Positions 9,068 to 30,169 of a stretch of 52,459 bases of DNA are shown one piece after another. How positions within the stretch are numbered: the stretch's first letter is position 1; the number at the start of each line of letters is the position of its first letter. Position numbers and translations under genes: made by a program. The DNA comes from a virus, in the UHGV virus genome UHGV-0060500; one strand, given 5' to 3'. The notes beneath the pieces were generated by a model, which saw nothing but the letters and a program-made list of their open reading frames with translations, made no database searches and was not told the origin of the DNA.

Positions 9068-9232
9068 TGGGTCGCCGACCTCAGTATGGAAGACCTCTAC
9101 CATTAGCCGCATACTCATAAGCATTAACCTCATGGCGAACTAAAACATTAACTGATAAACACAGAAGAAACCTGGCAGCTGGCTGATTAGGCCGCTTCTT
9201 TTCAGTTGATGCAGTGCAGAGATAGTGTCGCG

Positions 9233-9385: not shown

Positions 9386-9427
9386 ATTCTTTTCTCCTAT
9401 GGTTAGAGTGAACGCGCGGGCGGGCAT

Positions 9428-14501: not shown

Positions 14502-14543
14502 CAGCGTGATTGCGATCACATAAATATACATTTTGTATTGTGA

Positions 14544-14819
14544 TTGCATATCCGTTTTGTAAGCCGAAATCAAAAGGTTTACGGTGCGGAGGAAGCAAAA
14601 ATGGAACGCGAATTGATGCTTTATTGCGTAGAAGGTGGCGTAGGTCACGATGCCTACGTCGCCGGGAAAGGCTATCCAGCCGATGAAGTGCTTTCTAATA
14701 TGCACTTCAGAGAAAATGAAAGCCAGGTGTCTGTGTGGAAACGGTGCATTGATGGTATTGAAGTTGTAAGTATCGAGCGGTATTTAGGCACGTTTGATTA
14801 CGGTGTTATTGAGGCTTAA
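14544..14819 (+). CDS. Hypothetical protein (start possibly 14601)
   Basis: ORF after an intergenic region carrying repeat motifs. Confidence 0.35.
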   Translation: MHIRFVSRNQKVYGAEEAKMERELMLYCVEGGVGHDAYVAGKGYPADEVLSNMHFRENESQVSVWKRCIDGIEVVSIERYLGTFDYGVIEA

Positions 14820-15787: not shown

Positions 15788-16327
15788 ATGAAAAATGATT
15801 ACGGCGGCAGCCATACGCCGAAAGAAATAAAGGACTTATGGCAAACGCCAAAACCCGTTTTTAGAGGAATGGATCGTGAATTCGAATTCGTCGCGGACGT
15901 GGCGGCAAACAAGGCAAACGCATTAATCCCGCGATATATAACCGAAGAAATGGACACGCTGCATTATCCGTGGGGAGCGGTGGCAATGCCTGGTGAGTAT
16001 GTCTGGCTTAATCCGCCATATTCGAATCCGGGGCCATTCGTTGATAAGGCAGCGATGGAACATCACCGAAATCATATTGGCTGTGTAATGTTGTTGCCCG
16101 CTGATATCTCTGTTGGCTGGTTTATGAACGGCGTGGAGACGGCAAACGAATGCCGATTAATCACGCGCGGGCGGCTGGCGTTTATCAATGCTGCGACAGG
16201 GAAACCAGCAAGCGGAAACAATAAGGGTAGCTTGTTTTTGATCTGGCATCCACGGTGCAGACATGAATGTATTTTCACGCAGATAACACGTAAAGAGCTA
16301 TATGCAAGAGGTGCAGAAAATGAGTAA
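15788..16327 (+). CDS. dam: Phage DNA N6-adenine methyltransferase (Dam-like)
   Basis: 179 aa; catalytic NPPY motif (VWLNPPYSNPG) and overall pattern of the phage N-6-adenine methyltransferase family. Confidence 0.75.
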   Translation: MKNDYGGSHTPKEIKDLWQTPKPVFRGMDREFEFVADVAANKANALIPRYITEEMDTLHYPWGAVAMPGEYVWLNPPYSNPGPFVDKAAMEHHRNHIGCVMLLPADISVGWFMNGVETANECRLITRGRLAFINAATGKPASGNNKGSLFLIWHPRCRHECIFTQITRKELYARGAENE

Positions 16328-16832
16328 AGCGGCTGAATTGCTAAGACTTGCGGCTGAAACTATTGAGGCAAGAGGGGAACAAAACGGATACGATCGAAAA
16401 GAAGAAAAATCAGCGCCAAAAGTAGCGGCTATTTTCAACGCTAAGATGAATGCAAATTTAACCCCGCTTGATGTATGGGATCTACTAATTTGTCTCAAGG
16501 AAGCGCGTTTAGGGGCTATTTTAAGCAATGGTAGCGACCCGCTCGATACTCTTATAGACCTTATTGCTTATAACGCGCTAAAAGCGGAGCAAATATTAAC
16601 GGAGCGGGAGGAAGAGCAAAAGAAAAAACAGGGCGTTTTTGATCTCCCTATCGGTGGATTGAAGAAAACTTTTGCTGACCTTGCCGGACCAGAACCATCT
16701 ATTGTACCGGGGACAATCCCACCTGTGATGTTTAACGGTGGTGAGATTACTAATCGGCTTGATGTGAAGTTTGACAACGAATCGCTATTACGCGCGGCGG
16801 GGTATCATAAAAATGGAAAGGGTGACAATTGA
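16320..16832 (+). CDS. Hypothetical protein (about 170 aa)
   Basis: ORF between the two methyltransferase genes; SD GAGGTG before the ATG at 16320. Confidence 0.4.
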   Translation: MSKAAELLRLAAETIEARGEQNGYDRKEEKSAPKVAAIFNAKMNANLTPLDVWDLLICLKEARLGAILSNGSDPLDTLIDLIAYNALKAEQILTEREEEQKKKQGVFDLPIGGLKKTFADLAGPEPSIVPGTIPPVMFNGGEITNRLDVKFDNESLLRAAGYHKNGKGDN

Positions 16833-17316
16833 TAGGTTATTAGCCTGCGTTTATGTCGCCGTTTTTGTGATCATCAATCTTATTGTTAATCATTGCGGCC
16901 CGTGGGTAATTCCGATCACCACGGTAGCCGCCGTGTGTGTCAATATGATGATCCGTGACCTCCTGTTATATGACGGCGGCCTGAAATGGTCGGCTACAAC
17001 ATGCGCCGCCGCTGGCGCAATCACGGTGCTGATAAATTACGACGCCGGGATGGTGGCGATCGCGTCATTCGTCGCGGTTGTTTCCGGTGCGCTTATTTCT
17101 GGCGGCGTTTACCGGGTTTTGCCTGGTGGCTTTGATTCTAAACGTTGGCCTGCAAATATAGCGTCCGCCATTGGTGATGCGTTAATTTTTCCTACGCTAT
17201 CGTTTATGGCGTTTATGCCGGAAATATCAGCTATGCAATTCATCTCAAAAATGGCAGCGGTAACGGTGATTACTATCATCATGCGACGCTACTTCACGTT
17301 TGAGGGTAGAAAATGA
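16771..17316 (+). CDS. Multi-pass membrane protein, tentatively VUT/YhhQ-like (queuosine-precursor transporter family); start possibly 16813
   Basis: 4-5 predicted TM helices; loose resemblance to YhhQ segments (PANIASAIGDALIFPTLSFMAF versus YhhQ PTASTLFGNVSDTLAFFFIAF as recalled); assignment is tentative. Confidence 0.35.
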   Translation: MTTNRYYARRGIIKMERVTIDRLLACVYVAVFVIINLIVNHCGPWVIPITTVAAVCVNMMIRDLLLYDGGLKWSATTCAAAGAITVLINYDAGMVAIASFVAVVSGALISGGVYRVLPGGFDSKRWPANIASAIGDALIFPTLSFMAFMPEISAMQFISKMAAVTVITIIMRRYFTFEGRK

Positions 17317-18095
17317 GCAGGGCTAAACATTGGTTAAATAATTGGCTTAGAAGTTGGGTGGTGTGGTCGCTGTACGACGGCAGCGGGTACGCCGTTAAAG
17401 ATTGGGCGGAAGCAGGATATAAGTGCTATTGCTTCAACTATGACGGCGCAAATCACGGCGATTATGAAGGCGTTAAAATCATTCATCCAAATATTGAATA
17501 CGTTAACGTATGGATTGACAACCATTTCCTGGTAATGTTCTCCCCTGAATTGTCTGTTTATCCAGAGCCTGACATTATCTTGGGCTTTCCTCCGTGTGAT
17601 GATCTTGCCGTGTCCGGCGCTCGTTGGTTCGCTGACAAGCGGAAGAAAGATCCTCACTTCCAGCAAAAAGCAGCGTACAACGCAAAGTTAGTAGAAACGC
17701 TGGCGAGTATGTATAACGTCCCGTGGATGGTGGAAAATCCGGTGGGCGCACTGTCAACGCTATGGCGTAAACCGGATTTTATCTTCAATCCGTGCGCTTA
17801 CGGTGGCTACCTGCCGGAAGATGACAAACATCCTGCTTTCCCGGATGTTTACCCGCCGCGCGACGCGTATACGAAGAAAACTTGTATTTGGTGCGGCAAC
17901 GGATTTAAGCAGCCTCTTTTTAGGCCTGTAGATCTTAACTCTGGTGATAACCCTGGGTGGGCGAAAACCGGAGGCAGGACGAAACGAACAAAGATGATCC
18001 GCTCACTAACACCGCGTGGCTTTGCCCGTGCTGTATTCCTGGCTAACGACCGGGCCATCACGCGGACTACGCTTAACCGCGTTTTACCGGACTAA
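17313..18095 (+). CDS. DNA cytosine-5 methyltransferase-like protein (short)
   Basis: 260 aa; motif I-like LYDGSGY, motif IV-like GFPPCDDLAVSG (PC catalytic dipeptide), motif VI-like VENPVG. Confidence 0.55.
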   Translation: MSRAKHWLNNWLRSWVVWSLYDGSGYAVKDWAEAGYKCYCFNYDGANHGDYEGVKIIHPNIEYVNVWIDNHFLVMFSPELSVYPEPDIILGFPPCDDLAVSGARWFADKRKKDPHFQQKAAYNAKLVETLASMYNVPWMVENPVGALSTLWRKPDFIFNPCAYGGYLPEDDKHPAFPDVYPPRDAYTKKTCIWCGNGFKQPLFRPVDLNSGDNPGWAKTGGRTKRTKMIRSLTPRGFARAVFLANDRAITRTTLNRVLPD

Positions 18096-18254
18096 AGTTT
18101 ACAAAATGGCGTCATTGCGTGATATGGATCACATAATGGCGCTTTTCGCCTTGTTCTGGTGTATCCATTTTGTATACTTCAAGCAAACAAAATGCTCTTT
18201 AAAAATCCGGCAGCGCTGAAATGCGTAGAAATCACCTGAAAAGGAGAGAGCATT

Positions 18255-18431
18255 ATGTCTTTTGATGATTACCAATGGCATGACGACTATGAAAGAGAAA
18301 GCGTCATGCGTGCAATGTGCAATGTATGCAGCACGAAGAAAGGAGGCTGTAACGAGTGCAACGAATGCTTAGAACATTGGCTAAGGGCCGGACACGCCGA
18401 AAGGCTGAACGAAACAGAGAATCAAAAATAA
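18255..18431 (+). CDS. Small Cys-rich protein (58 aa)
   Basis: MSFDDYQWHDDYERESVMRAMCNVCSTKKGGCNECNEC...; strong SD AAGGAGAGAG. Confidence 0.4.
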   Translation: MSFDDYQWHDDYERESVMRAMCNVCSTKKGGCNECNECLEHWLRAGHAERLNETENQK

Positions 18432-18445
18432 TCGGGGTGGTTTTT

Positions 18446-19051
18446 ATGCAGAACCCTAAAAAACCCATAAGACGCCGTTGCAAATGCTGCGGCGTTTTTT
18501 TTGAGCCTAAATATCACAATCAAACGTGGTGCAGCGATGAATGTCTGGAAGAACTGAAGTTTGATCAGCTATGTCGCGACCGTGAGAAGGCTATGAAGGC
18601 TATGGAGCGGAAGAAACGCCGTGATAGCCAGCGTGAAGAACGCAACCGGAAGCGTAAACAGTTAAATCCGCGTAGTTATTGGATCAAACAAGTTCAAAAT
18701 GTATTTAACGCCTATATTCGCGAACGTGACGCGCGCTTGCCGTGTATATCTTGCGGGACTTACTACGGTGAGCAATGCGGGTGGGATGCGGGCCATTATA
18801 GGACGGTTGCCGCCGCCGGACACCTTCGCTTTAACGAGGATAATTGCCATAAACAATGCAGGCACTGCAACCAGACATTAGACGGAAACATAGGAGGGTA
18901 TCGCCCGGCACTGATTCGAAAAATTGGCCTCGCCAGGGTGGTGGCGCTGGAAAACAACAATGATACGCATAAATGGACGATCGCAGAATGTAAGGAGCTA
19001 ATAAACATCTATCAGGCTAAATTGGACGCCTTAAGGAGAAAGGCAGCATGA
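18446..19051 (+). CDS. ninG: NinG/Rap-like recombination protein
   Basis: Zinc-binding RRRCKCCG...WCSDEC and PRSYWIKQVQNVFNAYIRERDARLPCISCGT...WDAGHYRT...LRFNEDNCHKQC match lambda NinG closely as recalled; ORF-track start at 18356 is an upstream extension. Confidence 0.8.
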   Translation: MQNPKKPIRRRCKCCGVFFEPKYHNQTWCSDECLEELKFDQLCRDREKAMKAMERKKRRDSQREERNRKRKQLNPRSYWIKQVQNVFNAYIRERDARLPCISCGTYYGEQCGWDAGHYRTVAAAGHLRFNEDNCHKQCRHCNQTLDGNIGGYRPALIRKIGLARVVALENNNDTHKWTIAECKELINIYQAKLDALRRKAA

Positions 19052-19455
19052 ATGAATATTCTTTTAGCCTGCCTTACCCGCCATCGAATAATCGCTATTA
19101 CCGACATTCGCGCGGTTTTCACTATATCAGCAAAGTGGGGAAGGAATACAGGGAACAAGTAAGAGACATCATCGAGCTATTAAATTTAAATATTAACCTA
19201 CCTTGCCGACTGGCAATTGCCATTTACGCCGCGCCGCCGGATAACCGGATCAGAGATCTGGATAATATCCCTAAATGCCTTTTTGACAGCCTTACTTATG
19301 CCGGATTCTGGAGGGATGACGGGCAAATCGACTCAATAAAAATTGTTCGCTGCCGGAAGGCAAAAGGCGGACGCTTGTTTATTAAGATCCGCGAACGCGG
19401 CGACCTACTACCGGATATTGACGAATACGCGACTAATATGTGGGGTGAGCAATGA
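19048..19455 (+). CDS. rusA: RusA-family Holliday junction resolvase
   Basis: 135 aa; LPYPPSNNRYYRHSRG...DLDNIPKCLFDSL...WRDDGQI matches the RusA pattern. Confidence 0.8.
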   Translation: MNEYSFSLPYPPSNNRYYRHSRGFHYISKVGKEYREQVRDIIELLNLNINLPCRLAIAIYAAPPDNRIRDLDNIPKCLFDSLTYAGFWRDDGQIDSIKIVRCRKAKGGRLFIKIRERGDLLPDIDEYATNMWGEQ

Positions 19456-19634
19456 AAAACGAAGTTAAAGATCTGCAAATAGATATTCAGCGCGACGAGC
19501 GTGATTTAGAGACGGTCCGACAAATCCAGGCTTTCCACATGCGCGAATTACTTGCGCTGAAAGAGTTCGAAAGAAAGCTGGTGCAATCCATTTCTGATCG
19601 TAAACGTCTGGCGGCACGTTATGAGGGCAAATAA
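19452..19634 (+). CDS. Hypothetical coiled-coil protein (60 aa)
   Basis: ORF coupled to rusA. Confidence 0.35.
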   Translation: MKNEVKDLQIDIQRDERDLETVRQIQAFHMRELLALKEFERKLVQSISDRKRLAARYEGK

Positions 19635-20362
19635 TGAATTTAGAATCCATTCTAAAATTCCACTTTCCTAAATCACCGCGATTATCTGACGAAAGCCGGG
19701 GCACGTCCCCGGACGCTCTTAATACGACGGATGCGCTAACCGCTGCGGGTATGGCGCAATCGCGCGTAGAGCTTGGATATAGCGCTTTTTTAGGGAAGAT
19801 GGAACTATCACAAGCCGAAAAACACAGGGCCGTAGTTTTGCTTACAGAGCGTTTAAGGGCTATGGCGAAAGATTACGAATACGTGATGGAGTTAAACGAG
19901 GCACAACGCAATGATCTTATTATTCTTGTTGCCGTTTTCGCATTTCGGGATTATTGCCAGAGTGCGGCGACCGAAAAAGTTTGCCCTAAGTGCGGCGGTC
20001 ACGGGCATTTACCAAATCCATATGGCGAATACACATCAACAATTTGCGCACGGTGCGGCGGCAAAGGCTACGTTAAAAACCATTGCCAACGTTGCAAGGG
20101 GCGCGGCGAAGTACCGGATAAAACAGCCAGCGAAGCGGCGGAAATGCCAGTATTCAAAACGTGCCAGCATTGCGGCGGGCGCGGGTACTCGCGTTACCCT
20201 GTAGATCTTGTCCGGCAGGCAGTTAATCAGCTTGTTTTCCCGGTGAGCCGATCAACATGGTGGAAGAAATACCGTGCTTTCTATGAAGACGCCATTGCTG
20301 AATTGTTCAAAGAAGAGGCGCGGGCTGACAACGAAATTAAACGAGTGACGCGGGGTGAATAA
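19634..20362 (+). CDS. Putative late-gene antiterminator Q-like protein with DnaJ-type CxxCxGxG zinc-finger repeats
   Basis: Four CxxCGG(H/K/R)G repeats (CPKCGGHG, CARCGGKG, CQRCKGRG, CQHCGGRG); position after ninG/rusA as in lambdoid phages; assignment is tentative. Confidence 0.4.
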   Translation: MNLESILKFHFPKSPRLSDESRGTSPDALNTTDALTAAGMAQSRVELGYSAFLGKMELSQAEKHRAVVLLTERLRAMAKDYEYVMELNEAQRNDLIILVAVFAFRDYCQSAATEKVCPKCGGHGHLPNPYGEYTSTICARCGGKGYVKNHCQRCKGRGEVPDKTASEAAEMPVFKTCQHCGGRGYSRYPVDLVRQAVNQLVFPVSRSTWWKKYRAFYEDAIAELFKEEARADNEIKRVTRGE

Positions 20363-20565
20363 TGGATAAGTTAGAAATAAACGATCAGTTTGCCGTTATC
20401 TTGTTCGAAGATAAAACAGGCGGCGCATGGTGTAAGAAAGTCACTGGCGCAGAAGCGCGTTTGGTGTTGGGTATGGCAAGCGCGTTAAATGAAGGTGAAT
20501 TGCCAGCCGTACCTATTGAGCCTGTTCACATTTACGGGAGGAATAGAGAAGATGAAAATAATTAA
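20362..20565 (+). CDS. Hypothetical protein (67 aa)
   Basis: ORF. Confidence 0.35.
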   Translation: MDKLEINDQFAVILFEDKTGGAWCKKVTGAEARLVLGMASALNEGELPAVPIEPVHIYGRNREDENN

Positions 20566-20899
20566 TATCGGGTGGTTATATTGCAAAAACTGCGACGACG
20601 ACGGCATGGTTGTTAAGACTGAAAAAGGTTGCGGCTTCTTTTTGTATCAAGGCGATAAGTTTGTTTGTCCGCGATGCGGTGGTCATGGTGAGATAGAAAT
20701 TATTGAAGATAATGCTACAGCACCAGAGCCGGAGCGCATTGTTCTTGACGAAAAAATAAAAATTCATCCTGATTTATTGCAGCAAATTATCGATCACATA
20801 TCGGCAGCAGCAATCTATGCAGATAATAATTATCATCGTGAAATGAACGTAAAACGTGTTCTTGAGCAGTATTTCGAGGGTGGTGATAATGAAGCCTAA
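20552..20899 (+). CDS. Small zinc-ribbon protein (about 115 aa)
   Basis: CKNCDDDG...CPRCGGHG pair of CxxC motifs; SD GGGAGG. Confidence 0.4.
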   Translation: MKIINIGWLYCKNCDDDGMVVKTEKGCGFFLYQGDKFVCPRCGGHGEIEIIEDNATAPEPERIVLDEKIKIHPDLLQQIIDHISAAAIYADNNYHREMNVKRVLEQYFEGGDNEA

Positions 20900-21158
20900 A
20901 TTAAAAGAACATGAATTTAGGGATCTTGTAAACGGAATAACTGATAAGACCAGGACGTACTCAAATACACAACAATTAAGGGCGATGATAATTACGGAAT
21001 TAAGGAAATACATTGAGCCAGGCGGGCCAGGCGACGAAATGACTATGGACAAGGCCATCAAGCGCCGTTCGGCTGATTGGTCAGTCAGTAACACTGGATT
21101 AACCGGATACATCGAAGGCTATAACGACTGTTTACAGGATCATAGCAATGGCAAATAA
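20889..21158 (+). CDS. Hypothetical protein (about 89 aa)
   Basis: ORF; SD GAGGGTGGTGA. Confidence 0.35.
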   Translation: MKPKLKEHEFRDLVNGITDKTRTYSNTQQLRAMIITELRKYIEPGGPGDEMTMDKAIKRRSADWSVSNTGLTGYIEGYNDCLQDHSNGK

Positions 21159-21447
21159 ACACTTACATTTAAATTTAAAAGGGGAATACTTTCACGCTAT
21201 CCGGGCGGGAAAGAAGGTGGAGGAATACCGGCTTTATAATGACTATTGGCGTAAACGCCTGGAAGGGCGGGAATACACAAGATTAATCATCAAATGGGGA
21301 TACCCGGCTAACGACGAGAAGGAACGAATACTGATTCTTCCTTATATGGGGTACACAATCAAGACAATTCAGCATCCTTTATTTGGTGACGATCCTGTTA
21401 AAGTTTTTGCTATCAAATGCGATATTTATTGGCAATATAGGTTTTAG
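21148..21447 (+). CDS. ASCH/DUF3850-like PUA-fold protein
   Basis: HLNLKGEYFHAIRAGKKVEEYRLYNDYW...LIIKWGY resembles ASCH-domain proteins. Confidence 0.4.
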   Translation: MANKHLHLNLKGEYFHAIRAGKKVEEYRLYNDYWRKRLEGREYTRLIIKWGYPANDEKERILILPYMGYTIKTIQHPLFGDDPVKVFAIKCDIYWQYRF

Positions 21448-21450
21448 AAT

Positions 21451-21663
21451 ATGAAAAGTAACCGTAAACGCCTTGTAAGGGCATACGACAAAGCATTAAA
21501 GGCTTTTGATGATCTGCGACGCAATAAGCGCCAGCGCCGCAAATGGGCGCGAATGCTTGTTAGTGAATGGCATAACGAAGATTTCTTTCTGGAAGCGCGG
21601 CACATGACGCAAGAAGACGCGGATCAATTAGCTTACGATAACGTTTACTATATGATGTGGTGA
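21451..21663 (+). CDS. Hypothetical protein (70 aa)
   Basis: ORF. Confidence 0.35.
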   Translation: MKSNRKRLVRAYDKALKAFDDLRRNKRQRRKWARMLVSEWHNEDFFLEARHMTQEDADQLAYDNVYYMMW

Positions 21664-21667
21664 TAAT

Positions 21668-22033
21668 ATGCAGATAATCATTGATTACCTTTGCCACGCT
21701 GCAAATACAATTTTCGGTATGTATCAACAACCGTTTCTCAAAGAATGGGATGATATGCTAAACGACATCCTCGACAAAGGATTAATAATGGAGGTTGACG
21801 AGCTTACAATCAGATTTAATTATGAAGGTGAAGAATATCTAATTTGGGTGGGTAATAGATGGTATTCATACGGTCATATTTATTCAATTGGTGGTAAGTT
21901 CATTAAAAGAAACCAGGAATTCAGACCGCGCTTCCGCACTATGCGCCGCCTGCATGATCTGCATATAAAGCTATTCGAAGATCAGGAAGCGCGGGAATTA
22001 TTCAAAATTTACGGGGATAAATCATGGAGCTAA
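21668..22033 (+). CDS. Hypothetical protein (121 aa)
   Basis: ORF. Confidence 0.4.
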   Translation: MQIIIDYLCHAANTIFGMYQQPFLKEWDDMLNDILDKGLIMEVDELTIRFNYEGEEYLIWVGNRWYSYGHIYSIGGKFIKRNQEFRPRFRTMRRLHDLHIKLFEDQEARELFKIYGDKSWS

Positions 22034-22254
22034 AAATCTGGCAGGCTATCGACGTTGTTGATAACGAATTGTCTATGTTCGCCACTAACGGGAAACGCGT
22101 TGTGATCGCTACATGGACACGTAACCATGATGATATTGCTTTTCGTCGCGCTGCGGCGGAATTGCTTTTCTCTGATGGCGGCTACACGATGAACATCGCA
22201 CAGCTTGCCAGAATGAAAGATGAAAAGCTGGTGGACAGCTACACAACTGCGTAA
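22024..22254 (+). CDS. Hypothetical protein (76 aa)
   Basis: ORF. Confidence 0.35.
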   Translation: MELKIWQAIDVVDNELSMFATNGKRVVIATWTRNHDDIAFRRAAAELLFSDGGYTMNIAQLARMKDEKLVDSYTTA

Positions 22255-22264
22255 CGGGGTAAAT

Positions 22265-22498
22265 ATGCGTATCTATGAACACAAGCGGGATAAAACCCGC
22301 TTTTTTGTTCGTGCTGGCGTGGCGTACCAGTATCACGAATGCGGTTACATTGAGGCGCTAGCCTACGATCTGGATTTCGAACAGGAAAAAGCATGGTTCG
22401 ATTTTAAAATTTACCGGAAGCGCAAACCAACGCGCGACGAGCGACACGCTATCCGTGACTTTTTAATCAGTATTGAGCGCTGGGAGACAGAGGAATGA
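22265..22498 (+). CDS. Hypothetical protein (about 77 aa)
   Basis: ORF. Confidence 0.35.
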   Translation: MRIYEHKRDKTRFFVRAGVAYQYHECGYIEALAYDLDFEQEKAWFDFKIYRKRKPTRDERHAIRDFLISIERWETEE

Positions 22499-22722
22499 AG
22501 GTAAAATTCTTGCACGATCACGGTTATCCGTCACTGAAACAGGTTGTTGGTAAGGTGGTTAATGTCGTTCATGGCGATGATGTCACTTGCATGATTAACG
22601 GTGCTGATTTAATCGCCGCTGGCGCTGATGGCCATTACATAAATCCGGCATGGTCGTATACGTTCAGCCTGGGCGACTTCGTTGGCGATAAGGGGCGCGG
22701 GCTGGAAGTAGTCGAGGGTTAA
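22495..22722 (+). CDS. Hypothetical protein (75 aa)
   Basis: ORF. Confidence 0.35.
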   Translation: MKVKFLHDHGYPSLKQVVGKVVNVVHGDDVTCMINGADLIAAGADGHYINPAWSYTFSLGDFVGDKGRGLEVVEG

Positions 22723-22726
22723 CATC

Positions 22727-22975
22727 ATGGACGTTTACGAAGATCTATACCTCCAGACAAACACCCGCACTTTTTATTTTCTGAAAAACGGCGTCGTATA
22801 TCGCAGCGACGACGGGGTAATAATGAAGGAGTGGTTATTTAAGCGTAAAGACCTACTCGACGATTTGGTTTTTGCCGGAATATTTCGTAAACGTCCGGCT
22901 AACCTGGAAGAAGAAATGTTGATTGAGGTTATTAAAAATGAAAATCAGGGTAAGTTATTTCCGGGCGAAAGATAA
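22727..22975 (+). CDS. Hypothetical protein (82 aa)
   Basis: ORF. Confidence 0.35.
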   Translation: MDVYEDLYLQTNTRTFYFLKNGVVYRSDDGVIMKEWLFKRKDLLDDLVFAGIFRKRPANLEEEMLIEVIKNENQGKLFPGER

Positions 22976-23189
22976 GGCAACAGGAAAGCAGATGGCGATC
23001 CTGGTTAACGAGGCCAATTACATGTTTGTGCTTCAGCCGTGGTGTATAGCTGACTATAACGATGATTATCGCCGTCACGCGGCGCGGAGTGCGGTCGGGA
23101 TGAAAGGGTGGCAACCGCGCGACATGGAAAATTATTGCGACTGGAAACTGATTGCTAAATATACGGTTAATTATAAAGGGGTTTTCTGA
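22938..23189 (+). CDS. Hypothetical protein (about 83 aa)
   Basis: ORF; SD GAGGT. Confidence 0.35.
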   Translation: MKIRVSYFRAKDKATGKQMAILVNEANYMFVLQPWCIADYNDDYRRHAARSAVGMKGWQPRDMENYCDWKLIAKYTVNYKGVF

Positions 23190-23191
23190 TT

Positions 23192-23407
23192 ATGTTTGCA
23201 AGATGTGTTTATTCTGACACTACGTGCTTTACTACTGGCGAACTATATAGCGTTGATCTTCTTAATGGGTGCAAGCGCGGCGCTGGCCGGATTTATTATG
23301 TAAAAGATAATGATGGTGATGCGTGGCAATTTTACGGCGAGCATGCGAAAGGGGTTGTTAAGAGTAGTTTTGATAATCGTGTAATGGCGCATTTTGTTAA
23401 GTGGTGA
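23192..23407 (+). CDS. Hypothetical protein (71 aa)
   Basis: ORF. Confidence 0.35.
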   Translation: MFARCVYSDTTCFTTGELYSVDLLNGCKRGAGRIYYVKDNDGDAWQFYGEHAKGVVKSSFDNRVMAHFVKW

Positions 23408-23521
23408 GGTGTTGGACAACCATAAATGTGATCTGTATCACAATGTATACGAAATGGCATTGTTCCGGCAGTGCCGTTTTGTTATATATGAGCCACAGAA
23501 AGACGGAGGGGAGGCAAGAAG

Positions 23522-23662
23522 ATGAACGCAAACGCAAAATATCCTGCCTGGGTGTTTGAGTTATATGCCAGATACTTCGAACTACTGGCACCAGGTGAAG
23601 AAGCATTAAGCATTGACGAATACGCGGAGTGTCTGGGGTTCAAAGGAGGCAAAGAAGGATAA
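23522..23662 (+). CDS. Hypothetical small protein (46 aa)
   Basis: ATG with SD GACGGAGGGG upstream. Confidence 0.3.
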   Translation: MNANAKYPAWVFELYARYFELLAPGEEALSIDEYAECLGFKGGKEG

Positions 23663-23706
23663 AGCACGGGGTCGGATGGCCCCCATCAAACCAGAAGGGT
23701 TGAATT

Positions 23707-24006
23707 ATGAAAAGCGATAAATTCATAGCGTGCTGTTTTGTTGAAGTGCCTAAAGGTGATGTTTTCTGTAATTACGAATTTAAAGACAGTTTAGGCCGAT
23801 CTCATGTTGTTGTTGGTAAGCGCGGTGACTGGTTATATATAACAGACGACGACATGATTTTTACCAGAAATCAACTATTTCACATCAACTCGGTAAATAA
23901 TTATGCGCCAGTTGCCGCTATATCCATGATGGATCTTAAATCTAATATGTGGCTTGAAAAGGACACTGTGCATAAAGCGCGTAGCTTACCTGGTGCGGAG
24001 TTTTAA
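23707..24006 (+). CDS. Hypothetical protein (99 aa)
   Basis: ORF. Confidence 0.4.
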   Translation: MKSDKFIACCFVEVPKGDVFCNYEFKDSLGRSHVVVGKRGDWLYITDDDMIFTRNQLFHINSVNNYAPVAAISMMDLKSNMWLEKDTVHKARSLPGAEF

Positions 24007-24008
24007 TT

Positions 24009-24266
24009 ATGGTTGTGTTCAGGCTGTGGCGCGGCAATAGCATACTCGATGGCGAGTACAGCCGCGTGATTGAAGATGTTAATCGCGGGCGTTTTTATGA
24101 ACTGGCATACAGGGAGGCAATGGAGAACACCTATTTTGATGAGTCAATCCCTATGTGGCGGAAGATGTCTGGCGAAATAGCTTTCGCAATGCGCCACGGG
24201 TTTTATACAGATCATAACACGCTAATTGATGCCGAACTGGTGACAATTCTTTACGAAGGAGAATAA
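24009..24266 (+). CDS. Hypothetical protein (85 aa)
   Basis: ORF. Confidence 0.35.
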   Translation: MVVFRLWRGNSILDGEYSRVIEDVNRGRFYELAYREAMENTYFDESIPMWRKMSGEIAFAMRHGFYTDHNTLIDAELVTILYEGE

Positions 24267-24269
24267 CAA

Positions 24270-24593
24270 ATGTCTAAATTTATCAGCGTTAAGGTTTTCC
24301 GTGGCACTATTCCAGAAGATAAAAAATATGGACAATTCGCCGGACAACCTGGCGCATGTTTCCGTGTAGCCACTGACGACGAAGTTAGTGTCAAATGCTT
24401 CCATGTAGCTGAACCGCCTTTTGACGTGAAAGACCTTGATAATGCAGATCACGTTAAACATTTTGTTTTCGCATCGGTAGTGCTTAATCCTTGCCCTGAT
24501 GCTGAAGTGGAATTGCTTGGGGCTGAACTGGTTGCAGAATACCAAATGACTGAAGGAGAAAACGGAGGGATTGAAATTGAGCGCATCAAGTAA
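24270..24593 (+). CDS. Hypothetical protein (107 aa)
   Basis: ORF. Confidence 0.4.
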   Translation: MSKFISVKVFRGTIPEDKKYGQFAGQPGACFRVATDDEVSVKCFHVAEPPFDVKDLDNADHVKHFVFASVVLNPCPDAEVELLGAELVAEYQMTEGENGGIEIERIK

Positions 24594-24822
24594 GCTATAC
24601 AAGATCAGGTGTAAAGGCGAATATCCTGGCTTTACGATTGGTTGCGAATACATGGGCCACATTGGGTACGGCCCTTTCGGTGAATTAGGGATGAATACGC
24701 TGGACGACGACGGCGACAGCAGGACGCTTGATCTTGATTCTGATGATTTCGAATACATCCCGCCGATAACTTACCGCGACGTTGATGATTTCATGGCTGA
24801 ACATGACGACGAGGACGATTAA
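24571..24822 (+). CDS. Hypothetical acidic protein (83 aa)
   Basis: ORF with Asp-rich C-terminus. Confidence 0.35.
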   Translation: MKLSASSKLYKIRCKGEYPGFTIGCEYMGHIGYGPFGELGMNTLDDDGDSRTLDLDSDDFEYIPPITYRDVDDFMAEHDDEDD

Positions 24823-24954
24823 ATGGAAGAGTGGTATAAAAATTTATTAATCATGTTTCTTTCTGAAAATTGGGCGCTATTTGAGCGTTTTTGCGAGGAA
24901 CATGGTGAAGACCCTAACGATATTTATCACGATCTTGGTGGTGAAGATGACTGA
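24823..24954 (+). CDS. Hypothetical small protein (43 aa)
   Basis: ATG immediately after the upstream stop. Confidence 0.3.
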   Translation: MEEWYKNLLIMFLSENWALFERFCEEHGEDPNDIYHDLGGEDD

Positions 24955-25144
24955 ATGCCTTATTGTTGCGGTAGTTATAATTTACCTGGCTGGTGTCATT
25001 TTAATGGGCGCTTTTCAGAAGGCTGTTGATAGTGACGGCGTTATTTGGTTCGAGCTAGTCTTCTGGCCTTTCATTACGATATACGCATTCAGTGATGCTA
25101 TGCGTATTAACATCATGCGAGCCATTAAGGAGCGCAAAAAATGA
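24947..25144 (+). CDS. Small membrane protein (about 65 aa)
   Basis: MTECLIVAVVIIYLAGVILMGAF...; two hydrophobic helices. Confidence 0.35.
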   Translation: MTECLIVAVVIIYLAGVILMGAFQKAVDSDGVIWFELVFWPFITIYAFSDAMRINIMRAIKERKK

Positions 25145-25323
25145 TTGAAGATGGGGTGTACGCAGCAACAGTAGTCGACGGGTTGTTTTACCGCGTGGAA
25201 GGTGATGATATTCGTATCCGTGTTGGCGGTGGCGAGTGGGTAGCGCCAATCATTAAGACGACGCGAGAAACAATTAAAATATTTCTTGATGCTGGTGAAC
25301 TGGTAAAGGTTAGCGACCTATGA
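25141..25323 (+). CDS. Hypothetical protein (60 aa), paralogue of the next ORF
   Basis: MIEDGVYAATVVDGLFYRVEG... shares the IEDG.Y pattern with the ORF at 25320. Confidence 0.35.
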   Translation: MIEDGVYAATVVDGLFYRVEGDDIRIRVGGGEWVAPIIKTTRETIKIFLDAGELVKVSDL

Positions 25324-25496
25324 ACGAGATCGAAGATGGCATCTATTTGCATAAGGTATTTGACATCGCCTATTTGGTAAGAGGCGAAGAGGTGATGATA
25401 AGGAATGAAGATGTTCCTTATTGGGAATTAAGCGACATGGATCGCGAACACATGCAAACATTGCTTGATAACGGACTGATATACAGAACTGCGTAA
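25320..25496 (+). CDS. Hypothetical protein (58 aa), paralogue of the previous ORF
   Basis: MNEIEDGIYLHKVFDIAYLVRGEE...; ATGA overlap with the upstream stop. Confidence 0.35.
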   Translation: MNEIEDGIYLHKVFDIAYLVRGEEVMIRNEDVPYWELSDMDREHMQTLLDNGLIYRTA

Positions 25497-25560
25497 AGCC
25501 GTATTTGTGGGTCGAAAACAAACAGATTAAAATATTACCTAACAATGCGAAACTGTAACT

Positions 25561-25586
25561 ACCCGGCCCAGTGCCGGGTTTTTGCT
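25561..25586 (+). terminator. Hairpin plus T-tract immediately upstream of the lysis cassette (candidate late-operon terminator/antitermination site)
   Basis: ACCCGGCCCAGTGCCGGGT followed by TTTTGCTTTG, 18 bp before the holin start. Confidence 0.4.
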
Positions 25587-25603
25587 TTGTTGGAGGAAAA
25601 TCT

Positions 25604-25804
25604 ATGTTCGACAGAATACGGGAGGCGTGTGCGTATGTGACTGGGGCCGTAACTGCTTTTTTCGGCGCGATAACCATCAATGACATTGCCGTCTTTGTGG
25701 GTATTTTATCAACCGTAGGCACATTTGCCGTTAATTATTACTTCAAATCACAGGAGAACAAGCGAGCGCAAGAGGAACACGACGCGCGAATGGGGAATAA
25801 GTAA
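25604..25804 (+). CDS. Class II holin (pinholin-like)
   Basis: 66 aa, two TM helices then charged C-terminus (YFKSQENKRAQEEHDARMGNK); followed by a SAR endolysin; SD GGAGG. Confidence 0.7.
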   Translation: MFDRIREACAYVTGAVTAFFGAITINDIAVFVGILSTVGTFAVNYYFKSQENKRAQEEHDARMGNK

Positions 25805-26296
25805 ATGATTAGCCAATCGCTGAAAAACAAGATTGTTGCGGCGGCGGCTGGTGGGGCGATCGCTATTGCGGCGGTGATGATTAAGCCATTAGAGGGCGTG
25901 GAACACGATCCTTATCGTGATGTTGTTGGCGTATGGACTGTTTGCTACGGTCACACCGGAAAAGACATCATGCTTGGGAAGACTTACACGCAATCAGAAT
26001 GCGATGCTTTGTTGAACAAAGATCTACATAAGACCGCAAAAGCGATTGACCCATATATCAAAGTCGAAATATCAGATTTTACCCGCGCTGCACTTTATTC
26101 GTTCGCCTATAACGTAGGCGCAACCAACTTCAAAACATCAACCTTATTAAAGCTACTCAATGACGGCAAGAAATCAGAGGCGTGCGCACAGCTTAAGCGC
26201 TGGGTATACGCTGGCGGTAAGAAGTGGCAAGGCCTGGTTAACCGCCGCGAGGTTGAATATGCCGTTTGCGAATGGGGTGAGAAATGGACAAGGTGA
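25805..26296 (+). CDS. SAR endolysin (lysozyme, T4-lysozyme-like catalytic triad region)
   Basis: 163 aa; N-terminal signal-anchor-release helix [17 protein letters not shown], then E...D...T catalytic spacing ([16 protein letters not shown]). Confidence 0.8.
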
Positions 26297-26754
26297 AGAC
26301 GTTAATCATCGCCGTTGTTGTTTGCATTATTGCCGGACTAACCGCCGTAACGTGTTATTACCAGGGTGAGGCGGCAAGGTTACAGGAAGAAGTCACGGTG
26401 ACGAAAGGCGCACTGAAGACAGCAAGTAACACTATTCAGCAGATGAAGGAGCGAAACGCCGAACTGTCAAAACTTGATAAGAGGTATCACGATGAGATTA
26501 AAGCTATCAGATCTGACATTGCCGATCTGCGCACTGGCATTGATAACGGCACTATCAGGCTGCGCGTCAACGCAATACCGGTGCGAGTGTCTGACCCCAC
26601 CGGAACCGCCAGCGCCATTGATGGAGCCGCCTGTAGACTCACTCCCGACGCTGAATCGGCTTATCTATCCCTCAGAGAACAACTAAAAACGAAAGACGCT
26701 CAGATTACTGGTCTTCAGGACTACATCAAAACTCAGTGCTTACGCAAAGAATAA
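26284..26754 (+). CDS. Rz: Rz-like i-spanin
   Basis: 156 aa; N-terminal TM helix, coiled-coil periplasmic domain; embedded Rz1-like ORF in another frame. Confidence 0.75.
26474..26686 (+). CDS. Rz1: Rz1-like o-spanin lipoprotein (embedded in Rz); start probably the Met at 26492
   Basis: Lipobox LSGC followed by a Pro-rich sequence, entirely inside the Rz gene in the +1 frame. Confidence 0.7.
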   Translation: MIRGITMRLKLSDLTLPICALALITALSGCASTQYRCECLTPPEPPAPLMEPPVDSLPTLNRLIYPSENN

Positions 26755-27032
26755 CAGCGCGTGGACGTGTCGCCGTTTCTGCCAGCCAGCCATAACCGGG
26801 CCAATCCTTCCCGCGAGCGACGGCGGAAATTCAAAAACACGTAATACCGGATCAACAGTCCCATTAACAGGTCAGGCGCTACCTGGGTAGAAGAAAGCGC
26901 CATCCACCAATTTTATAAAATTCTGTAAACGGTACTCACACAGCGCCGTTTTCAGTGTTTTATAGCTGTTTTCACTCCCTGCGGTGTCCAGTTTTGCGGG
27001 GGTTATATTTTTCAGGATAGAGGAATATTCTG

Positions 27033-27575
27033 ATGGCTAAGGGTAAAGGCATTAAGTTGCCTCAATTCAAAGTCCCGCTCTTTGAGCATACAACAGTTTT
27101 CTTCTGCCCGACTCGCGACATGTTCTATGAATTTTGCGAAAAGGCAGGGATCCCAATCGAACCTGATTTCGAACTGGCTGGAGGATTGACGCTTACTTGC
27201 ACTGGTGAGAAAGGCGGTAACTTCTACGTGATCGCAGTATTCGACAATGAGTTGGGTACGCTGGTACATGAATGCGCCCACACTACATTCCACGTCTTAA
27301 GTGATGTAGGCGTCGTGGCGACCACTGATCCAATTCATCCGGCAAACGAGACTTACGCTTACATGGTGGGCCGCATCTTTGACGCATTCTTCCCAATCCT
27401 GGCTGAATCAAACGAAGCGCAGGTTGCAGCAATGCAGGCGGCTGAAGTCGTAGAGAAGGCATTAGAACAGGCAGAACAGCCGAAGGAAGAGGAAAAGCCC
27501 GCTAAGAAAGGCAAACGCAAGCCGAAAGCAAAAGATGCGCTTGTGCCGCGTGTAATGAGCTTTAAACGAGGCTGA
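27033..27575 (+). CDS. Hypothetical protein with HExxH motif and lysine-rich acidic/basic C-terminal tail
   Basis: 180 aa; LVHECAHTTFH (HExxH) and C-terminal EQAEQPKEEEKPAKKGKRKPKAK; SD GAGGAA. Confidence 0.5.
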   Translation: MAKGKGIKLPQFKVPLFEHTTVFFCPTRDMFYEFCEKAGIPIEPDFELAGGLTLTCTGEKGGNFYVIAVFDNELGTLVHECAHTTFHVLSDVGVVATTDPIHPANETYAYMVGRIFDAFFPILAESNEAQVAAMQAAEVVEKALEQAEQPKEEEKPAKKGKRKPKAKDALVPRVMSFKRG

Positions 27576-27577
27576 TT

Positions 27578-28154
27578 ATGGACGCTTACATCATCGCCGG
27601 ATTAATTGGTATTCTGTATTTCTGGTGAGTTTTGTTATTGCCGTACTGATAACCGTAAAGAGCAAGTATTAGATGTGGTGGCAATATGATTGACCCGCTA
27701 ATTATCCTTTCTGCCTGCGTCGCTGTATGGCTGGCGATCATGATATTCATTGAAAGCTGAAGGTATCCACAATGAACGCATACGAAATGCTATTGCTGGT
27801 GGCTGTTATTACAGTTATTGCCGTAGATGTTTATCGGGAGTTTAAAAAATGAAATGGCTTGATTTCTTTTTCCTGATCGTTGCGATTGTTCTCACTATGA
27901 CCGCGCTTGCTCAATAGGTGAAAGCATGAACGCTATTGATATTATGTTGATCGTGTGTACCGTTGCATTAGTTATTATTGGGGTGATTATCAATGTCTGA
28001 TGGTGATTTCTTAATCATGGCTATATGCACGCTGTTAACTGTTATTGTTTTCTTCGCGTAAAGGTAAACAATGAAAGAATTATTCGATTGGTTGGAAGTA
28101 TTAACATACTGTGCAAGTTTTGTTGCTTGCGTATATATCATCAATAAATATTGA
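27578..28154 (+). other. Array of seven tandem micro-ORFs encoding 16-27 aa hydrophobic peptides (27578-27628, 27686-27760, 27772-27852, 27849-27917, 27926-28000, 27993-28061, 28071-28154)
   Basis: Each ATG is preceded by an SD-like purine run; peptides MDAYIIAGLIGILYFW, MIDPLIILSACVAVWLAIMIFIES, MNAYEMLLLVAVITVIAVDVYREFKK, MKWLDFFFLIVAIVLTMTALAQ, MNAIDIMLIVCTVALVIIGVIINV, MSDGDFLIMAICTLLTVIVFFA, MKELFDWLEVLTYCASFVACVYIINKY. Confidence 0.4.
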
Positions 28155-28164
28155 GAGGTGAATT

Positions 28165-28680
28165 ATGGCCCGCACTAAAAAGGCAAAAGCTGACGACAAA
28201 AAGCCAGCCGCAAAAAGGGTGGGCCGTCCGCATGGTTATACCGAAGAAAAGGCGTTAGAAATCTGTGAACTGGTGGCGGACGGTCAGAGCGTTAACAAAA
28301 TTTCGAAGATGCCTGGTATGCCTACCCGTTCAACAATCCTGAAATGGTTTAGAGACGTGCCGGAATTCTCGGACATGTACATGCGCGCGAAGGAAATCGG
28401 CTTCGAGGTATTAGCTGATGAGATCCTCGATATAGCTGATGATGCTAAGAACGTTGATAAAGACCAACTACGCCGCCACCAATTAATGATTGAAACGCGT
28501 AAATGGTTATTGGCTAAGCTACAACCGCGCAAATACGGCGAACGCGTCACACAGGAGATCGTCGGTAACAAGGAAGAAGCACCCGTCCAGGTAGAAGTAA
28601 ATCAGACTACTGTCCTTGAGATAATCGATAACCTGAATAAGGAGTACAATACTCATGGAGACTGCGACGACAAAGATTGA
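28165..28680 (+). CDS. Terminase small subunit
   Basis: 171 aa; N-terminal basic HTH-like region (GRPHGYTEEKALEICELVADGQSVNKISKMPGMPTRSTI), immediately upstream of and overlapping the large subunit. Confidence 0.75.
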   Translation: MARTKKAKADDKKPAAKRVGRPHGYTEEKALEICELVADGQSVNKISKMPGMPTRSTILKWFRDVPEFSDMYMRAKEIGFEVLADEILDIADDAKNVDKDQLRRHQLMIETRKWLLAKLQPRKYGERVTQEIVGNKEEAPVQVEVNQTTVLEIIDNLNKEYNTHGDCDDKD

Positions 28681-30169
28681 CAGAGAGGTTCTAAGGGGGT
28701 TGTGTGTTAAAGGTTGTGCTCCCAAAGACATATCAGCACCTTTGTTTTTTAGTTCCTACTTTTATAAGCAACAGGTTGGCAAGGACTTTTTGGTTGGGCG
28801 TCATCACAGAATAATTGCCGATACGCTACAACGAGTTATTAATGGTGAAATCACCAGGTTGATAATCAACATCCCACCGGGCTATGGCAAAACAATGATT
28901 GCCACAATTCACATGATGGCCCGCTGCCTCGCAATAGAACCCCGCACCAGATTCCTGCATGTATCGTATTCACACGGACTCGCCTTGCTTAATTCCTCAG
29001 AGACAAGAAACATAATCACGATGCCGCAATATCAGGAATTGTGGCCTATGCAAATGCGCAACGATTCGAACGCGAAAAACCTGTGGTGGACCACTCAGGG
29101 TGGCGGCGTGTATGCGACGTCATCGCTTGGACAGGTGACAGGGTTCCGCGCCGGGTACATGGAACCTGGGTTTAACGGCGCAATGATTATTGATGACCCC
29201 CTGAAACCAGCTGACGCTTATTCTGATGTGGTGCGAAAGCAGGTTAATACCAATTACAACGACACGCTTTCTTCGCGCCTGGCTGTGCAAACAACGCCAG
29301 TGATCGTCATCATGCAGCGTATCCACTACGATGATTTATCCGGCTACCTGTTACGTGGCGGTAGTGGTGAGAAATGGCATCACCTTTGCCTGCCAGTGAA
29401 GATCGACAACAGTCTTGACTATTGGGATCTGTACCCGGAAAACAAATTCGCTATTCCTGTTCCTCACAACCTGCCGGATGGCTGGCTATGGTTGCATAAG
29501 CATAGTGATAAAGATGAATCAACTCTTAAATCACATCGCCGAACATTCGAAGCTCAATATATGCAGTGTCCGCGCAAGTTCGATCAAGAGGGCGCATTGT
29601 GGACTGAAGCGATGATAACCGCCGCGCACATGATGCAGATAACGCAGGAGAAAATTCGCACGGTGATAGCCATCGACCCGGCGACAACATCATCTGATGA
29701 GTCAGACGAAACAGGGATTGTAGCCTGTTCCGCTTATGGTGGTGGCAAGAATGCTCAGTATTCAGTAGACGGTGACTACTCAGGCCGCATGTCACCTAAT
29801 GACTGGGCGCAAGCAGCAATGAACGCCTACAACATCCATGAAGCTGACGCGATGGTTATCGAAACCAACCAGGGTGGTGATATGGCAGAGGCCACACTAC
29901 GCAATGCAGGATTTAAGGGCCGCATTGTTAAGGTGCACGCAAGCAAGGGTAAATTTGCCCGCGCCGAACCAATATCTGCATTGTATGCACAGGGTAGGGT
30001 AGCCCACACTGGCAGCCTGTACACGCTGGAAAATCAAATGATGGAATATGTGCCAGCCACCGCTAAAAAATCCCCTGACCGTATGGATGCTATGGTATGG
30101 GGTATCACTGAACTAAGCCAGCCACAGGCGATGGGCCTCATGTTACCTAAGCGCCTGCGAGGGTTTTAA
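28655..30169 (+). CDS. Terminase large subunit
   Basis: 504 aa; Walker A-like PPGYGKTM, ATPase then nuclease domain arrangement. Confidence 0.85.
   Translation: METATTKIDREVLRGLCVKGCAPKDISAPLFFSSYFYKQQVGKDFLVGRHHRIIADTLQRVINGEITRLIINIPPGYGKTMIATIHMMARCLAIEPRTRFLHVSYSHGLALLNSSETRNIITMPQYQELWPMQMRNDSNAKNLWWTTQGGGVYATSSLGQVTGFRAGYMEPGFNGAMIIDDPLKPADAYSDVVRKQVNTNYNDTLSSRLAVQTTPVIVIMQRIHYDDLSGYLLRGGSGEKWHHLCLPVKIDNSLDYWDLYPENKFAIPVPHNLPDGWLWLHKHSDKDESTLKSHRRTFEAQYMQCPRKFDQEGALWTEAMITAAHMMQITQEKIRTVIAIDPATTSSDESDETGIVACSAYGGGKNAQYSVDGDYSGRMSPNDWAQAAMNAYNIHEADAMVIETNQGGDMAEATLRNAGFKGRIVKVHASKGKFARAEPISALYAQGRVAHTGSLYTLENQMMEYVPATAKKSPDRMDAMVWGITELSQPQAMGLMLPKRLRGF

Follow-up and report, generated by a model that had tools for sequence, protein, structure and literature searches.

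UHGV-0060500 is a virus genome of 52,459 nucleotides (nt), referred to here over its whole length as the window, in which a gene resembling the late antiterminator gene Q is found several kilobases away from the lysis genes. The present analysis concerns this gene, its surroundings and the site at which its product may act. The Q-like open reading frame (ORF) of 242 amino acids (aa) occupies positions 19634-20362 (+), where the ORF list and Pfam place it downstream of ninG, rusA and a 60-aa ORF; 5241 nt separate its stop codon from the ATG of the holin gene, and this interval is taken up by an array of small ORFs on the same strand. A first-pass annotation, made from the sequence alone, had described a Q-like zinc-finger protein that follows ninG/rusA and lies about 5 kb upstream of the lysis cassette rather than adjacent to it, and in all of these points it was correct (ninG and rusA being recognized by PF05766 and PF05866, with the 60-aa ORF between rusA and Q).

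Over the segment 19000-27000, the window shows 89–93% nucleotide identity, at 59–94% coverage, to seven phage records (mEp010, MagusPhagus, mEp554, mEp044, mEp013, mEp021, and mEp515), the closest figure being that of mEp010 (92.7% identity over 94% of the segment), which makes it a member of the mEp021-like (mEpimmI) group. It shares with this group (GenBank MH706966, PP180001-5) the order of its genes as well as the nut sites, the Q gene, the small-ORF array, the terminator and the lysis cassette. PMC11893012 describes the mEpimmI phages as Nus-dependent, non-lambdoid temperate coliphages isolated from human faeces, and the group has been reported to be as frequent in human gut samples as lambdoid phages.

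The Q protein

By sequence and by predicted fold, the 242-aa protein is an antiterminator of the Q-lambda family and not a relative of DnaJ. It matches the Pfam family "Antitermination protein Q" (PF03589) with 107.1 bits against a cutoff of 26.7 (E=5e-31), and a phmmer search of PDB sequences aligned its residues 1-114 and 150-240 with Q-lambda (7UBM chain Q, E=2.5e-37; identity to lambda Q approximately 34–39%), an alignment that spans the N-terminal torus-forming segment, the helix-turn-helix (HTH) body and the zinc-ribbon arm. In the description of PF03589, the Q-lambda family, given in PMC9388147, these parts correspond to residues 1-60 (torus), 61-113 and 153-207 (HTH body) and 114-152 (zinc-ribbon arm). 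An AlphaFold model built on 30 homologues (predicted local distance difference test score, pLDDT, 82.1; predicted template modelling score, pTM, 0.73) points the same way: its best Foldseek match is 7UBN_Q, the NusA-engaged form of Q-lambda (E=1.8e-15, target-normalised TM 0.78), and ranks 1-8 of its significant PDB matches are all Q-lambda. Residues that are the same as in lambda include G39, L58 and T239 (lambda T206), the lambda counterparts of which figure in the list of residues for antitermination in PMC9388147, as well as the zinc cysteines C151, C154, C177, and C180; changed positions are V6 (to I), C53 (to L) and H56 (to M).

Unlike lambda Q, the protein has a zinc-ribbon arm that begins with 35 inserted residues (aa 115-149), which bring two additional CxxCxGxG motifs and raise their total to four. 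The motif had led the first-pass annotation to call the protein DnaJ-type. The motif itself is there, in four copies, but the relationship to DnaJ does not stand: DnaJ_CXXCXGXG (PF00684) scores 29.8 bits, below its cutoff of 32.7, and Pfam finds no J domain. The label thus describes a motif resemblance, the CxxCxGxG motifs being those of the Q arm. Additional cysteine motifs and an insertion in the arm are common within the Q-lambda family: among 84 sampled members, the short 207-aa form is that of lambda alone, and ST104 gp23, HK225 Q and most prophage homologues have three to four cysteine motifs and 240–276 aa. The Pfam scan at E<=0.01 gave no match to Q21 (PF06530) or Q82 (PF06323), and the region showed no additional homologue of Q, Q21 or Q82.

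Within the mEp021 group, Q is kept at 71–98% identity in every member, with the N-terminal torus segment intact. The arm insertion (19976-20080) exists in the group in two very different versions, VCPKCGGHGHLPNPYGEYTSTICARCGGKGY and TCMECGGYKFTFDEYGE--KHLCKKCKGHGT; the remainder of Q is at least 86% identical between carriers of either version, and the versions are not matched to the promoter variants described below. Judged from these sequences, the insertion may be a hotspot of recombination or diversification.

The spacer ahead of the holin and the region after Q

The last ORF of the array and the holin gene are separated by a 107-nt non-coding spacer, which contains, in this order, TTGTGG (25505), 17 nt, TAAAAT (25528), ATTACC, TAACAAT (25540), 14 nt, a hairpin (25561-25579) and TTTTT. 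The first-pass annotation had noticed the hairpin and T-tract just upstream of the holin and had proposed the interval 25498-25603 as the relevant region. The hairpin proved real, being the top-ranked terminator-like site in 16000-29000 (RNA fold of -21.8 kcal/mol, z=-3.0), and the interval holds a promoter-like cassette at 25505-25584. Hairpin and T-tract (25561-25589) read ACCCGGC-CCAGT-GCCGGGT followed by TTTTTGCTTTG, and GenBank annotations independently put a terminator at the same spot (TERM_5 in mEp021, T9 in mEp010). PMC11893012 speaks of an experimentally shown terminator, "t5", which we assume to be TERM_5. We propose that the terminator at 25561 would also stop unmodified early transcripts.

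The sigma70-dependent pause element of lambda is the sequence AACGAT (+1 to +6); the Q-binding element (QBE) of this phage is located between the -35 and -10 elements (Roberts laboratory work). The late promoter PR' of lambda reads TTGACT - 17 nt - TAAATT - TGACTC - AACGAT, that of ST104 TATCAT-aaccc-TAACAGT, and that of HK225 TAATTT-tatccc-AACGAT, with a terminator from approximately +28; the geometry of the pre-holin spacer agrees with these three and with 46 other loci. On this geometry, transcription is predicted to start near 25540/25541 and to pause near 25556/25557 (approximately +16/17), and the near-invariant sequence at 25516-25527 is a candidate QBE. The exact pattern TAWAAT-N7-AACRRT has a single occurrence in the 52-kb window, at 25528-25546, and with up to three mismatches allowed, no second copy of the spacer/-10 block was found in the window (e.g., before the terminase genes).

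The pre-holin element was found in 34 IMG/VR contigs and in 33 complete Escherichia coli genomes, and the identities that follow are mean pairwise values over 39 distinct sequences. The 88-nt non-coding core (25516-25603) has an identity of 0.952, as compared to 0.878 and 0.809 at the third codon positions of the holin and lysozyme genes, respectively, and approximately 0.5 for the last array ORFs. The hairpin stem is invariant, most of the variation in the core being found in the loop and at a few linked positions, and the invariant block reaches 45 nt upstream of the hairpin. TAACAAT is invariant within the mEp021 group, as is the -10 hexamer TAAAAT in 43 loci, though the latter was part of the search pattern. 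An E. coli prophage found independently via its Q protein (L126, Q 71% identical) has the same arrangement, with a 6.55-kb array and AAAACAAAAAGAT-TAAAAT-atcctc-AACAATGC...hairpin directly before the holin. Farther relatives include one with a 45%-identical Q (L128; protein P0010), in which Q is followed by at least 11 small ORFs and the contig ends short of the lysis genes, and a lambdoid prophage with a 41%-identical Q (P0012), in which a canonical PR' comes right after Q.

Homology between group members starts sharply at 25516, inside the promoter spacer, which marks a mosaic boundary (25497-25515). Upstream of it, two unrelated-looking versions are seen (...GCCGTATTTGTGGGTCG... and ...CCATAATCGCGCATAA...), each tied to different last array ORFs, and the -35 position of other group members is occupied by TTGTAG or TCGCGC. 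The TCGCGC version is also present in L126 (16201-16206).

The region directly downstream of Q was compared over 80 IMG/VR loci encoding Q-lambda relatives (47 from outside the mEp021 group, with 32–38% identity to the Q of the window, and 33 from the group), in each of which the first terminator after Q was located with a simple terminator finder. In the sequences inspected, the 47 non-group loci carry, within approximately 40–90 nt of the Q stop, a good -35, an A-rich spacer of 16–17 nt, a -10, 5–7 nt, (T)AAC(G/A)NT or a similar sequence, and a terminator; the pause element in most relatives is TAACGCT. In 43 of them, the first terminator is found 84–123 nt past the Q stop, and it is against this background that the 5-kb separation in the window is unusual. 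In the 33 group loci, the first terminator-like site is 0.7–2.1 kb (mostly 1.6–2.1 kb) past the Q stop. The next ORF opens no more than 8 nt away from the Q stop in 30 of these 33 loci, usually overlapping it, and the same holds for the window, where the next ATG overlaps the Q stop. Directly after the Q stop of the window there is no promoter/pause/terminator cassette, and the adjacency that marks the canonical Q cassette is missing: the Q stop (20362) and the pre-holin cassette (25505) are 5.1 kb apart. One candidate for a PR' right after Q, TAAGTT-N7-AACGAT at 20367-20385, was rejected, as it has no terminator nearby and represents codons E-I-N-D of the first array ORF; its AACGAT looks coding because it is lost in variant first ORFs (AACATG in L056 and L072).

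The small-ORF array, the nut sites and the neighbouring genes

The interval between Q and the holin is 95% coding on the plus strand. The first-pass annotation had counted about 25 small ORFs in it; many small ORFs are indeed present, but their number comes to 21 when ORFs of at least 40 aa with an ATG or GTG start are counted. Eighteen of 20 array ORFs match PHROG families without known function, and none of the array ORFs tested passed a Pfam threshold, the sole sub-threshold match being a DnaJ-type CxxC in ORF 20552-20899. The array is one-stranded and 90–96% coding across the group, and Q lies 1.9–6.7 kb upstream of the same pre-holin element in all mEp021-group relatives with enough sequence, the shortest distance being that of mEp021 (1.9 kb) and the number of intervening ORFs ranging from 9 to 30. 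We interpret the array as variable accessory cargo at the far end of the right operon, where expression would be delayed-early. The cargo of relatives at this position is different: L128 has a homologue of the restriction-alleviation protein Lar (9188-9415), L126 a PAPS-reductase-like gene (14058-14813), and L006 a gene labelled "RNA-binding protein" (932-1240).

A second terminator-like hairpin (22279-22310), the first such site after Q in the window (1921 nt past the Q stop), is embedded in an array ORF. It is unchanged in 38 distinct related sequences although substitutions occur in the codons around it, a pattern that points to selection on the nucleotide sequence, and the hairpin may divide the array as an internal attenuator. 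A direct similarity of 31 nt (74% identity; ...ACTGCGTAA) connects 22240-22270 with 25482-25512, each the 3' end of an array ORF, and each copy has a GC hairpin and a T-tract within 15–50 nt downstream; it could be a recombination junction or the remnant of a duplication. Apart from it, repeats in 19600-25650 were limited to short chance-level matches.

Upstream of ninG, a boxA-like string and an A-rich-loop hairpin form a nutR2-like site (Table 1). The boxA string TGCTCTTTAAAAATCCGG recurs at 9527-9510 (-), in nutL position, and a weaker copy, GGCACTTTAAAAATCAGG, is found at 10532-10550 (+), in nutR1 position; the string common to the three nut-like sites (9490-9527 -, 10532-10550 +, 18193-18226 +) is (A/T)GCTCTTTAAAAATCCGG. 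This agrees with the published three-site arrangement of an N-like system: according to PMC11893012 and a predecessor paper, the N-like antiterminator Gp17 acts at nutL, nutR1, and nutR2, the last of which the former places downstream of the cytosine methyltransferase gene. By its sequence and position, 18193-18226 probably marks where the Gp17 system acts, upstream of ninG-rusA-Q. PMC11893012 mentions Q in passing as "Q-lambda-like"; its searchable text does not discuss a late promoter, a site of Q action or the separation of Q from the lysis genes.

A 160-nt spacer separates the cytosine-methyltransferase-like gene from a ninF-like gene, which is followed by the NinG gene. The real start of the latter is probably near 18446, because relatives annotate a gene of 606 nt. 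The ORF preceding Q has counterparts of 60–61 aa directly 5' of Q in mEp010, MagusPhagus and the 45%-identity relative L128, and also in all five E. coli prophages whose sequence extends upstream of Q. On the other side of the locus, a stretch of approximately 590 nt (27576-28164) separates a 180-aa ORF (27033-27575) from the small terminase gene; no gene could be called in it with confidence, its ORFs all being hydrophobic and very short, and in relatives several tiny coding sequences are annotated at the equivalent position. Rfam (at the gathering threshold) gave no matches and ARAGORN no tRNAs, so that a tRNA/moron block of the kind seen in Stx phages is absent. In relatives, a gene of approximately 457 aa after the large terminase is labelled "anti-CBASS protein Acb1 family protein" in RefSeq (L004 12187-13566, L005 11979-13349, L006 12208-13581, and others); by its position, it is more likely to encode a portal or portal-fused protein.

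Table 1. Features of the region around Q and the lysis genes, in window coordinates
Feature	Position	Strand	Remarks
Cytosine-methyltransferase-like gene	17313-18095	+	ORF list/Pfam
nutR2-like site: boxA-like TGCTCTTTAAAAATCCGG and A-rich-loop hairpin GCGCTGAAATGCG	18193-18226	+	combined motif unique in window
NinG homologue	18356-19051	+	PF05766, E=1.3e-66
RusA Holliday-junction resolvase	19048-19455	+	PF05866, E=4.5e-15
60-aa ORF of no known function, precedes Q	19452-19634	+	phrog_18514, E=5e-22
Array of about 21 small ORFs, 43–121 aa	20362-25496	+	mostly overlapping stop/start codons
Terminator-like hairpin AAGCGGG-ATAAAA-CCCGCTT and TTTTTG	22279-22310	+	codons 5-15 of array ORF 22265-22498
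Weak -35-like hexamer TTGTGG	25505-25510	+	3/6 match
Promoter spacer	25511-25527	+	17 nt
Putative Q-binding element AAACAAACAGAT	25516-25527	+	near-invariant: one C/T/A position, one rare substitution
Proposed PR' -10 hexamer TAAAAT	25528-25533	+	5/6 match
TAACAAT, proposed sigma70-dependent pause element	25540-25546	+	-10-like, approximately +1 to +6
Intrinsic terminator, proposed tR'	25561-25584	+	7-bp GC-rich stem, 5-nt loop, T-tract
Class II (HP1-family) holin	25604-25804	+	PF16080, E=2.5e-14; ribosome-binding site (RBS) GGAGGA 25592-25597
Lysozyme	25805-26296	+	PF00959
Rz spanin	26284-26754	+	PF03245
Rz1-like lipoprotein ORF embedded in Rz	26474-26686	+	lipobox-like LSGC
Small terminase subunit	28165-28680	+	ORF list/Pfam

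The proposed site of Q action, its alternatives and its meaning

In the mEp021 group, the cassette that normally comes after Q is missing from that place, and a cassette of the same anatomy stands before the holin; we therefore place the likely action of Q at the holin spacer. The reading that we prefer, and consider probable, is that a functional Q of the Q-lambda type acts in trans on a late promoter 5.2 kb away, beside the holin, and that the early right operon includes the small ORFs. In this model, the early rightward transcript would be made terminator-resistant by Gp17 at nutR1 and nutR2 and would cover ninG, rusA, Q and the array of approximately 21 ORFs; as the modified transcript would run through the array, the array ORFs would be delayed-early. 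A separate promoter would fire near 25540/41, from the weak -35 (25505-10) and the -10 hexamer TAAAAT (25528-33), and the sigma70-bearing RNA polymerase would pause approximately 16 nt downstream, where sigma region 2 would rebind TAACAAT at +1 to +6. Without Q, transcription would terminate at 25561-25584 with release of an RNA of approximately 45 nt. Q would diffuse to the site, bind the conserved spacer DNA and, together with NusA, form the RNA-exit-channel nozzle described for Q-lambda, and the polymerase so modified would pass the terminator at 25561 and those farther on, and would transcribe the genes for holin, lysozyme, Rz, terminase and morphogenesis.

A number of observations weigh against this reading. 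The -35 is poor (3/6 for TTGTGG and TTGTAG, 2/6 for the TCGCGC variant), as compared to TTGACT or TTGCAT in canonical PR' promoters of the Q-lambda family, and a consensus promoter scan is silent at the pre-holin site. The spacer has only A10-A12 and G15 in common with lambda-type spacers, and with so few shared positions the QBE assignment is weak. Which of the two versions of the -35 and upstream spacer a member carries bears no relation to its Q variant, whether in the arm insertion or at aa 64-77, a result that we count as neither support nor contradiction. Part of the conservation could reflect the terminator and the RBS alone. Finally, the array protein encoded at 22727-22975 (82 aa) is homologous to mEp021_41, which is annotated as "virion structural protein" and which PMC11893012 reports from purified virions on the basis of mass spectrometry, calling its gene "mislocated"; a virion protein is easier to square with late expression and is odd as the product of an apparent early-operon gene.

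Because the -35 is so poor, and nearly absent in one group variant, a modified reading has been considered, in which the pre-holin cassette is mainly not a free-standing promoter and Q captures polymerases from the early promoter that have paused at TAACAAT after sigma70 rebinds from solution. The tail of the early transcript would then turn directly into the late transcript, the terminator at 25561 would close the early operon and at the same time serve as a Q-controlled gate, with the hairpin at 22283 as an additional checkpoint inside the array. We regard this version as quite improbable.

Of the explanations that dispense with the pre-holin promoter altogether, the one with most in its favour holds that late genes are reached by Gp17-modified read-through of 25561, the spacer being nothing but a terminator and RBS and Q being auxiliary, acting elsewhere or loading on polymerases from upstream. 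N-type complexes pass downstream terminators in lambda biology, and genes on one strand run unbroken from nutR2 to the holin; the weakness and variability of the -35 and the silence of the promoter scan fit this explanation as well. What it leaves without a purpose are the invariant 45 nt upstream of the hairpin, where a 5/6 -10 and a TAAC-type element stand in the register of Q-lambda promoters, which neither a terminator nor an RBS needs; moreover, Q with its torus segment is preserved in every group member, and the window has no other Q-type cassette at which it might act. We consider read-through unlikely, and it is kept alive by the poor -35, the few shared spacer positions, the missing co-variation and the virion-detected array protein. 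The same virion protein would also suit a late promoter at or just after Q, as in lambda, with the approximately 21 small ORFs in a late or middle transcript, and the position would be the canonical one, seen in 43–47 of the 47 other Q-lambda-family loci; the sequence TAAGTT-N7-AACGAT even overlaps the start of the first array ORF. However, there is no intergenic space to accommodate such a promoter, the AACGAT string is lost in group members with a variant first ORF, the candidate -35 and -10 are poor, no terminator follows within 700 nt, and the conserved promoter-like cassette at 25505-25584 would go unexplained, all of which makes this placement very unlikely in our estimation. Least credible of all is that the zinc-finger protein is not a late antiterminator and has a DnaJ-like or other DNA-binding role. 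Its gene adjoins no late promoter and its four-motif cysteine cluster is DnaJ-like, but the homology to Q-lambda extends over the full length, as does the predicted fold, including the N-terminal 60-residue exit-channel torus; the DnaJ domain score stays below threshold with no J domain present, and long-arm Qs with three to four cysteine motifs, which are the majority of sampled relatives, adjoin canonical PR' cassettes. The first-pass annotation had left a choice between these last two possibilities, a late promoter far upstream, which would make the small ORFs late or middle genes, or a protein other than the late antiterminator, and the findings favour neither: there is no cassette after Q and cassette anatomy is found before the holin, and both sequence and predicted fold clearly assign the protein to the Q-lambda family.

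In the preferred reading, with a late promoter beside the holin, the module can be compared with known systems as follows. With lambda (Q, PR', QBE, pause and tR'; 7UBM, 7UBN, 4MO1), the window shares the full-length homology and predicted fold of Q, the location of Q after ninG/rusA-type genes and, in the proposed promoter region, a 17-nt spacer, a -10, an AAC..T element at +1 to +6 and an intrinsic terminator followed by lysis genes. It differs from lambda in the distance between Q and the proposed PR' (5.2 kb vs. approximately 45 nt), in the weak -35, in a terminator only approximately 21 nt past the start with a predicted RNA of approximately 45 nt (vs. the 194-nt 6S RNA of lambda), and in the Q arm with its 35-aa insertion and second CxxCxGxG pair. 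The pre-holin module would work like the lambda Q module but departs from the adjacency of Q and PR', a feature that is usually stated for it (PMC9388147). The long-arm Qs of lambdoid and P22-like phages (ST104 gp23, HK225 Q, and many IMG/VR prophages) are closer in having extra cysteine motifs in the arm (at 254–276 aa), TAAC(G/A)NT leaders and a close terminator; unlike in the window, their PR' begins approximately 40–90 nt past the Q stop, and in the loci fetched they are 32–38% identical to the Q of the window. Several kilobases between Q and the lysis genes are also found in Stx phages, where, however, pR' adjoins Q and the intervening stx genes are described as late under pR' (PMC6266700), whereas the intervening genes of the window apparently lie upstream of the late promoter. 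A remote Q gene nevertheless has a precedent in the telomere phages N15, PY54, and phiKO2, in which the putative antiterminator gene q is placed away from the late and lysis genes, in an immB region operon with cro (PMC4488713); these are linear plasmid prophages with another genome architecture, and the likeness is one of gene position.

Overall, the phage group and its annotation are already public; neither the location proposed here for the late promoter nor the early status of the array that would follow from it appears to have been described before. In the textbook drawing, the Q gene is directly followed by promoter, pause site and terminator; in every group member examined, including the relative with a 71%-identical Q, a variable block of tiny genes of 2–7 kb intervenes between Q and its apparent target. 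If our reading is true, Q need not adjoin its target, and the array would be under early and not late control, which bears on any attempt to guess the roles of approximately 20 uncharacterised proteins, for which a part in host takeover or anti-defence is plausible. In that case, the prophage might also be a constitutive source of a terminated RNA of approximately 45 nt. For mechanistic work, the locus offers a compact natural variant of PR', with a weak -35 and a terminator approximately 21 nt from the start. The gain is incremental, since action of Q in trans is established and the layout calls for no new mechanism; it would represent a modest variation on the textbook arrangement, and one that is consistent across a common group of gut coliphages.

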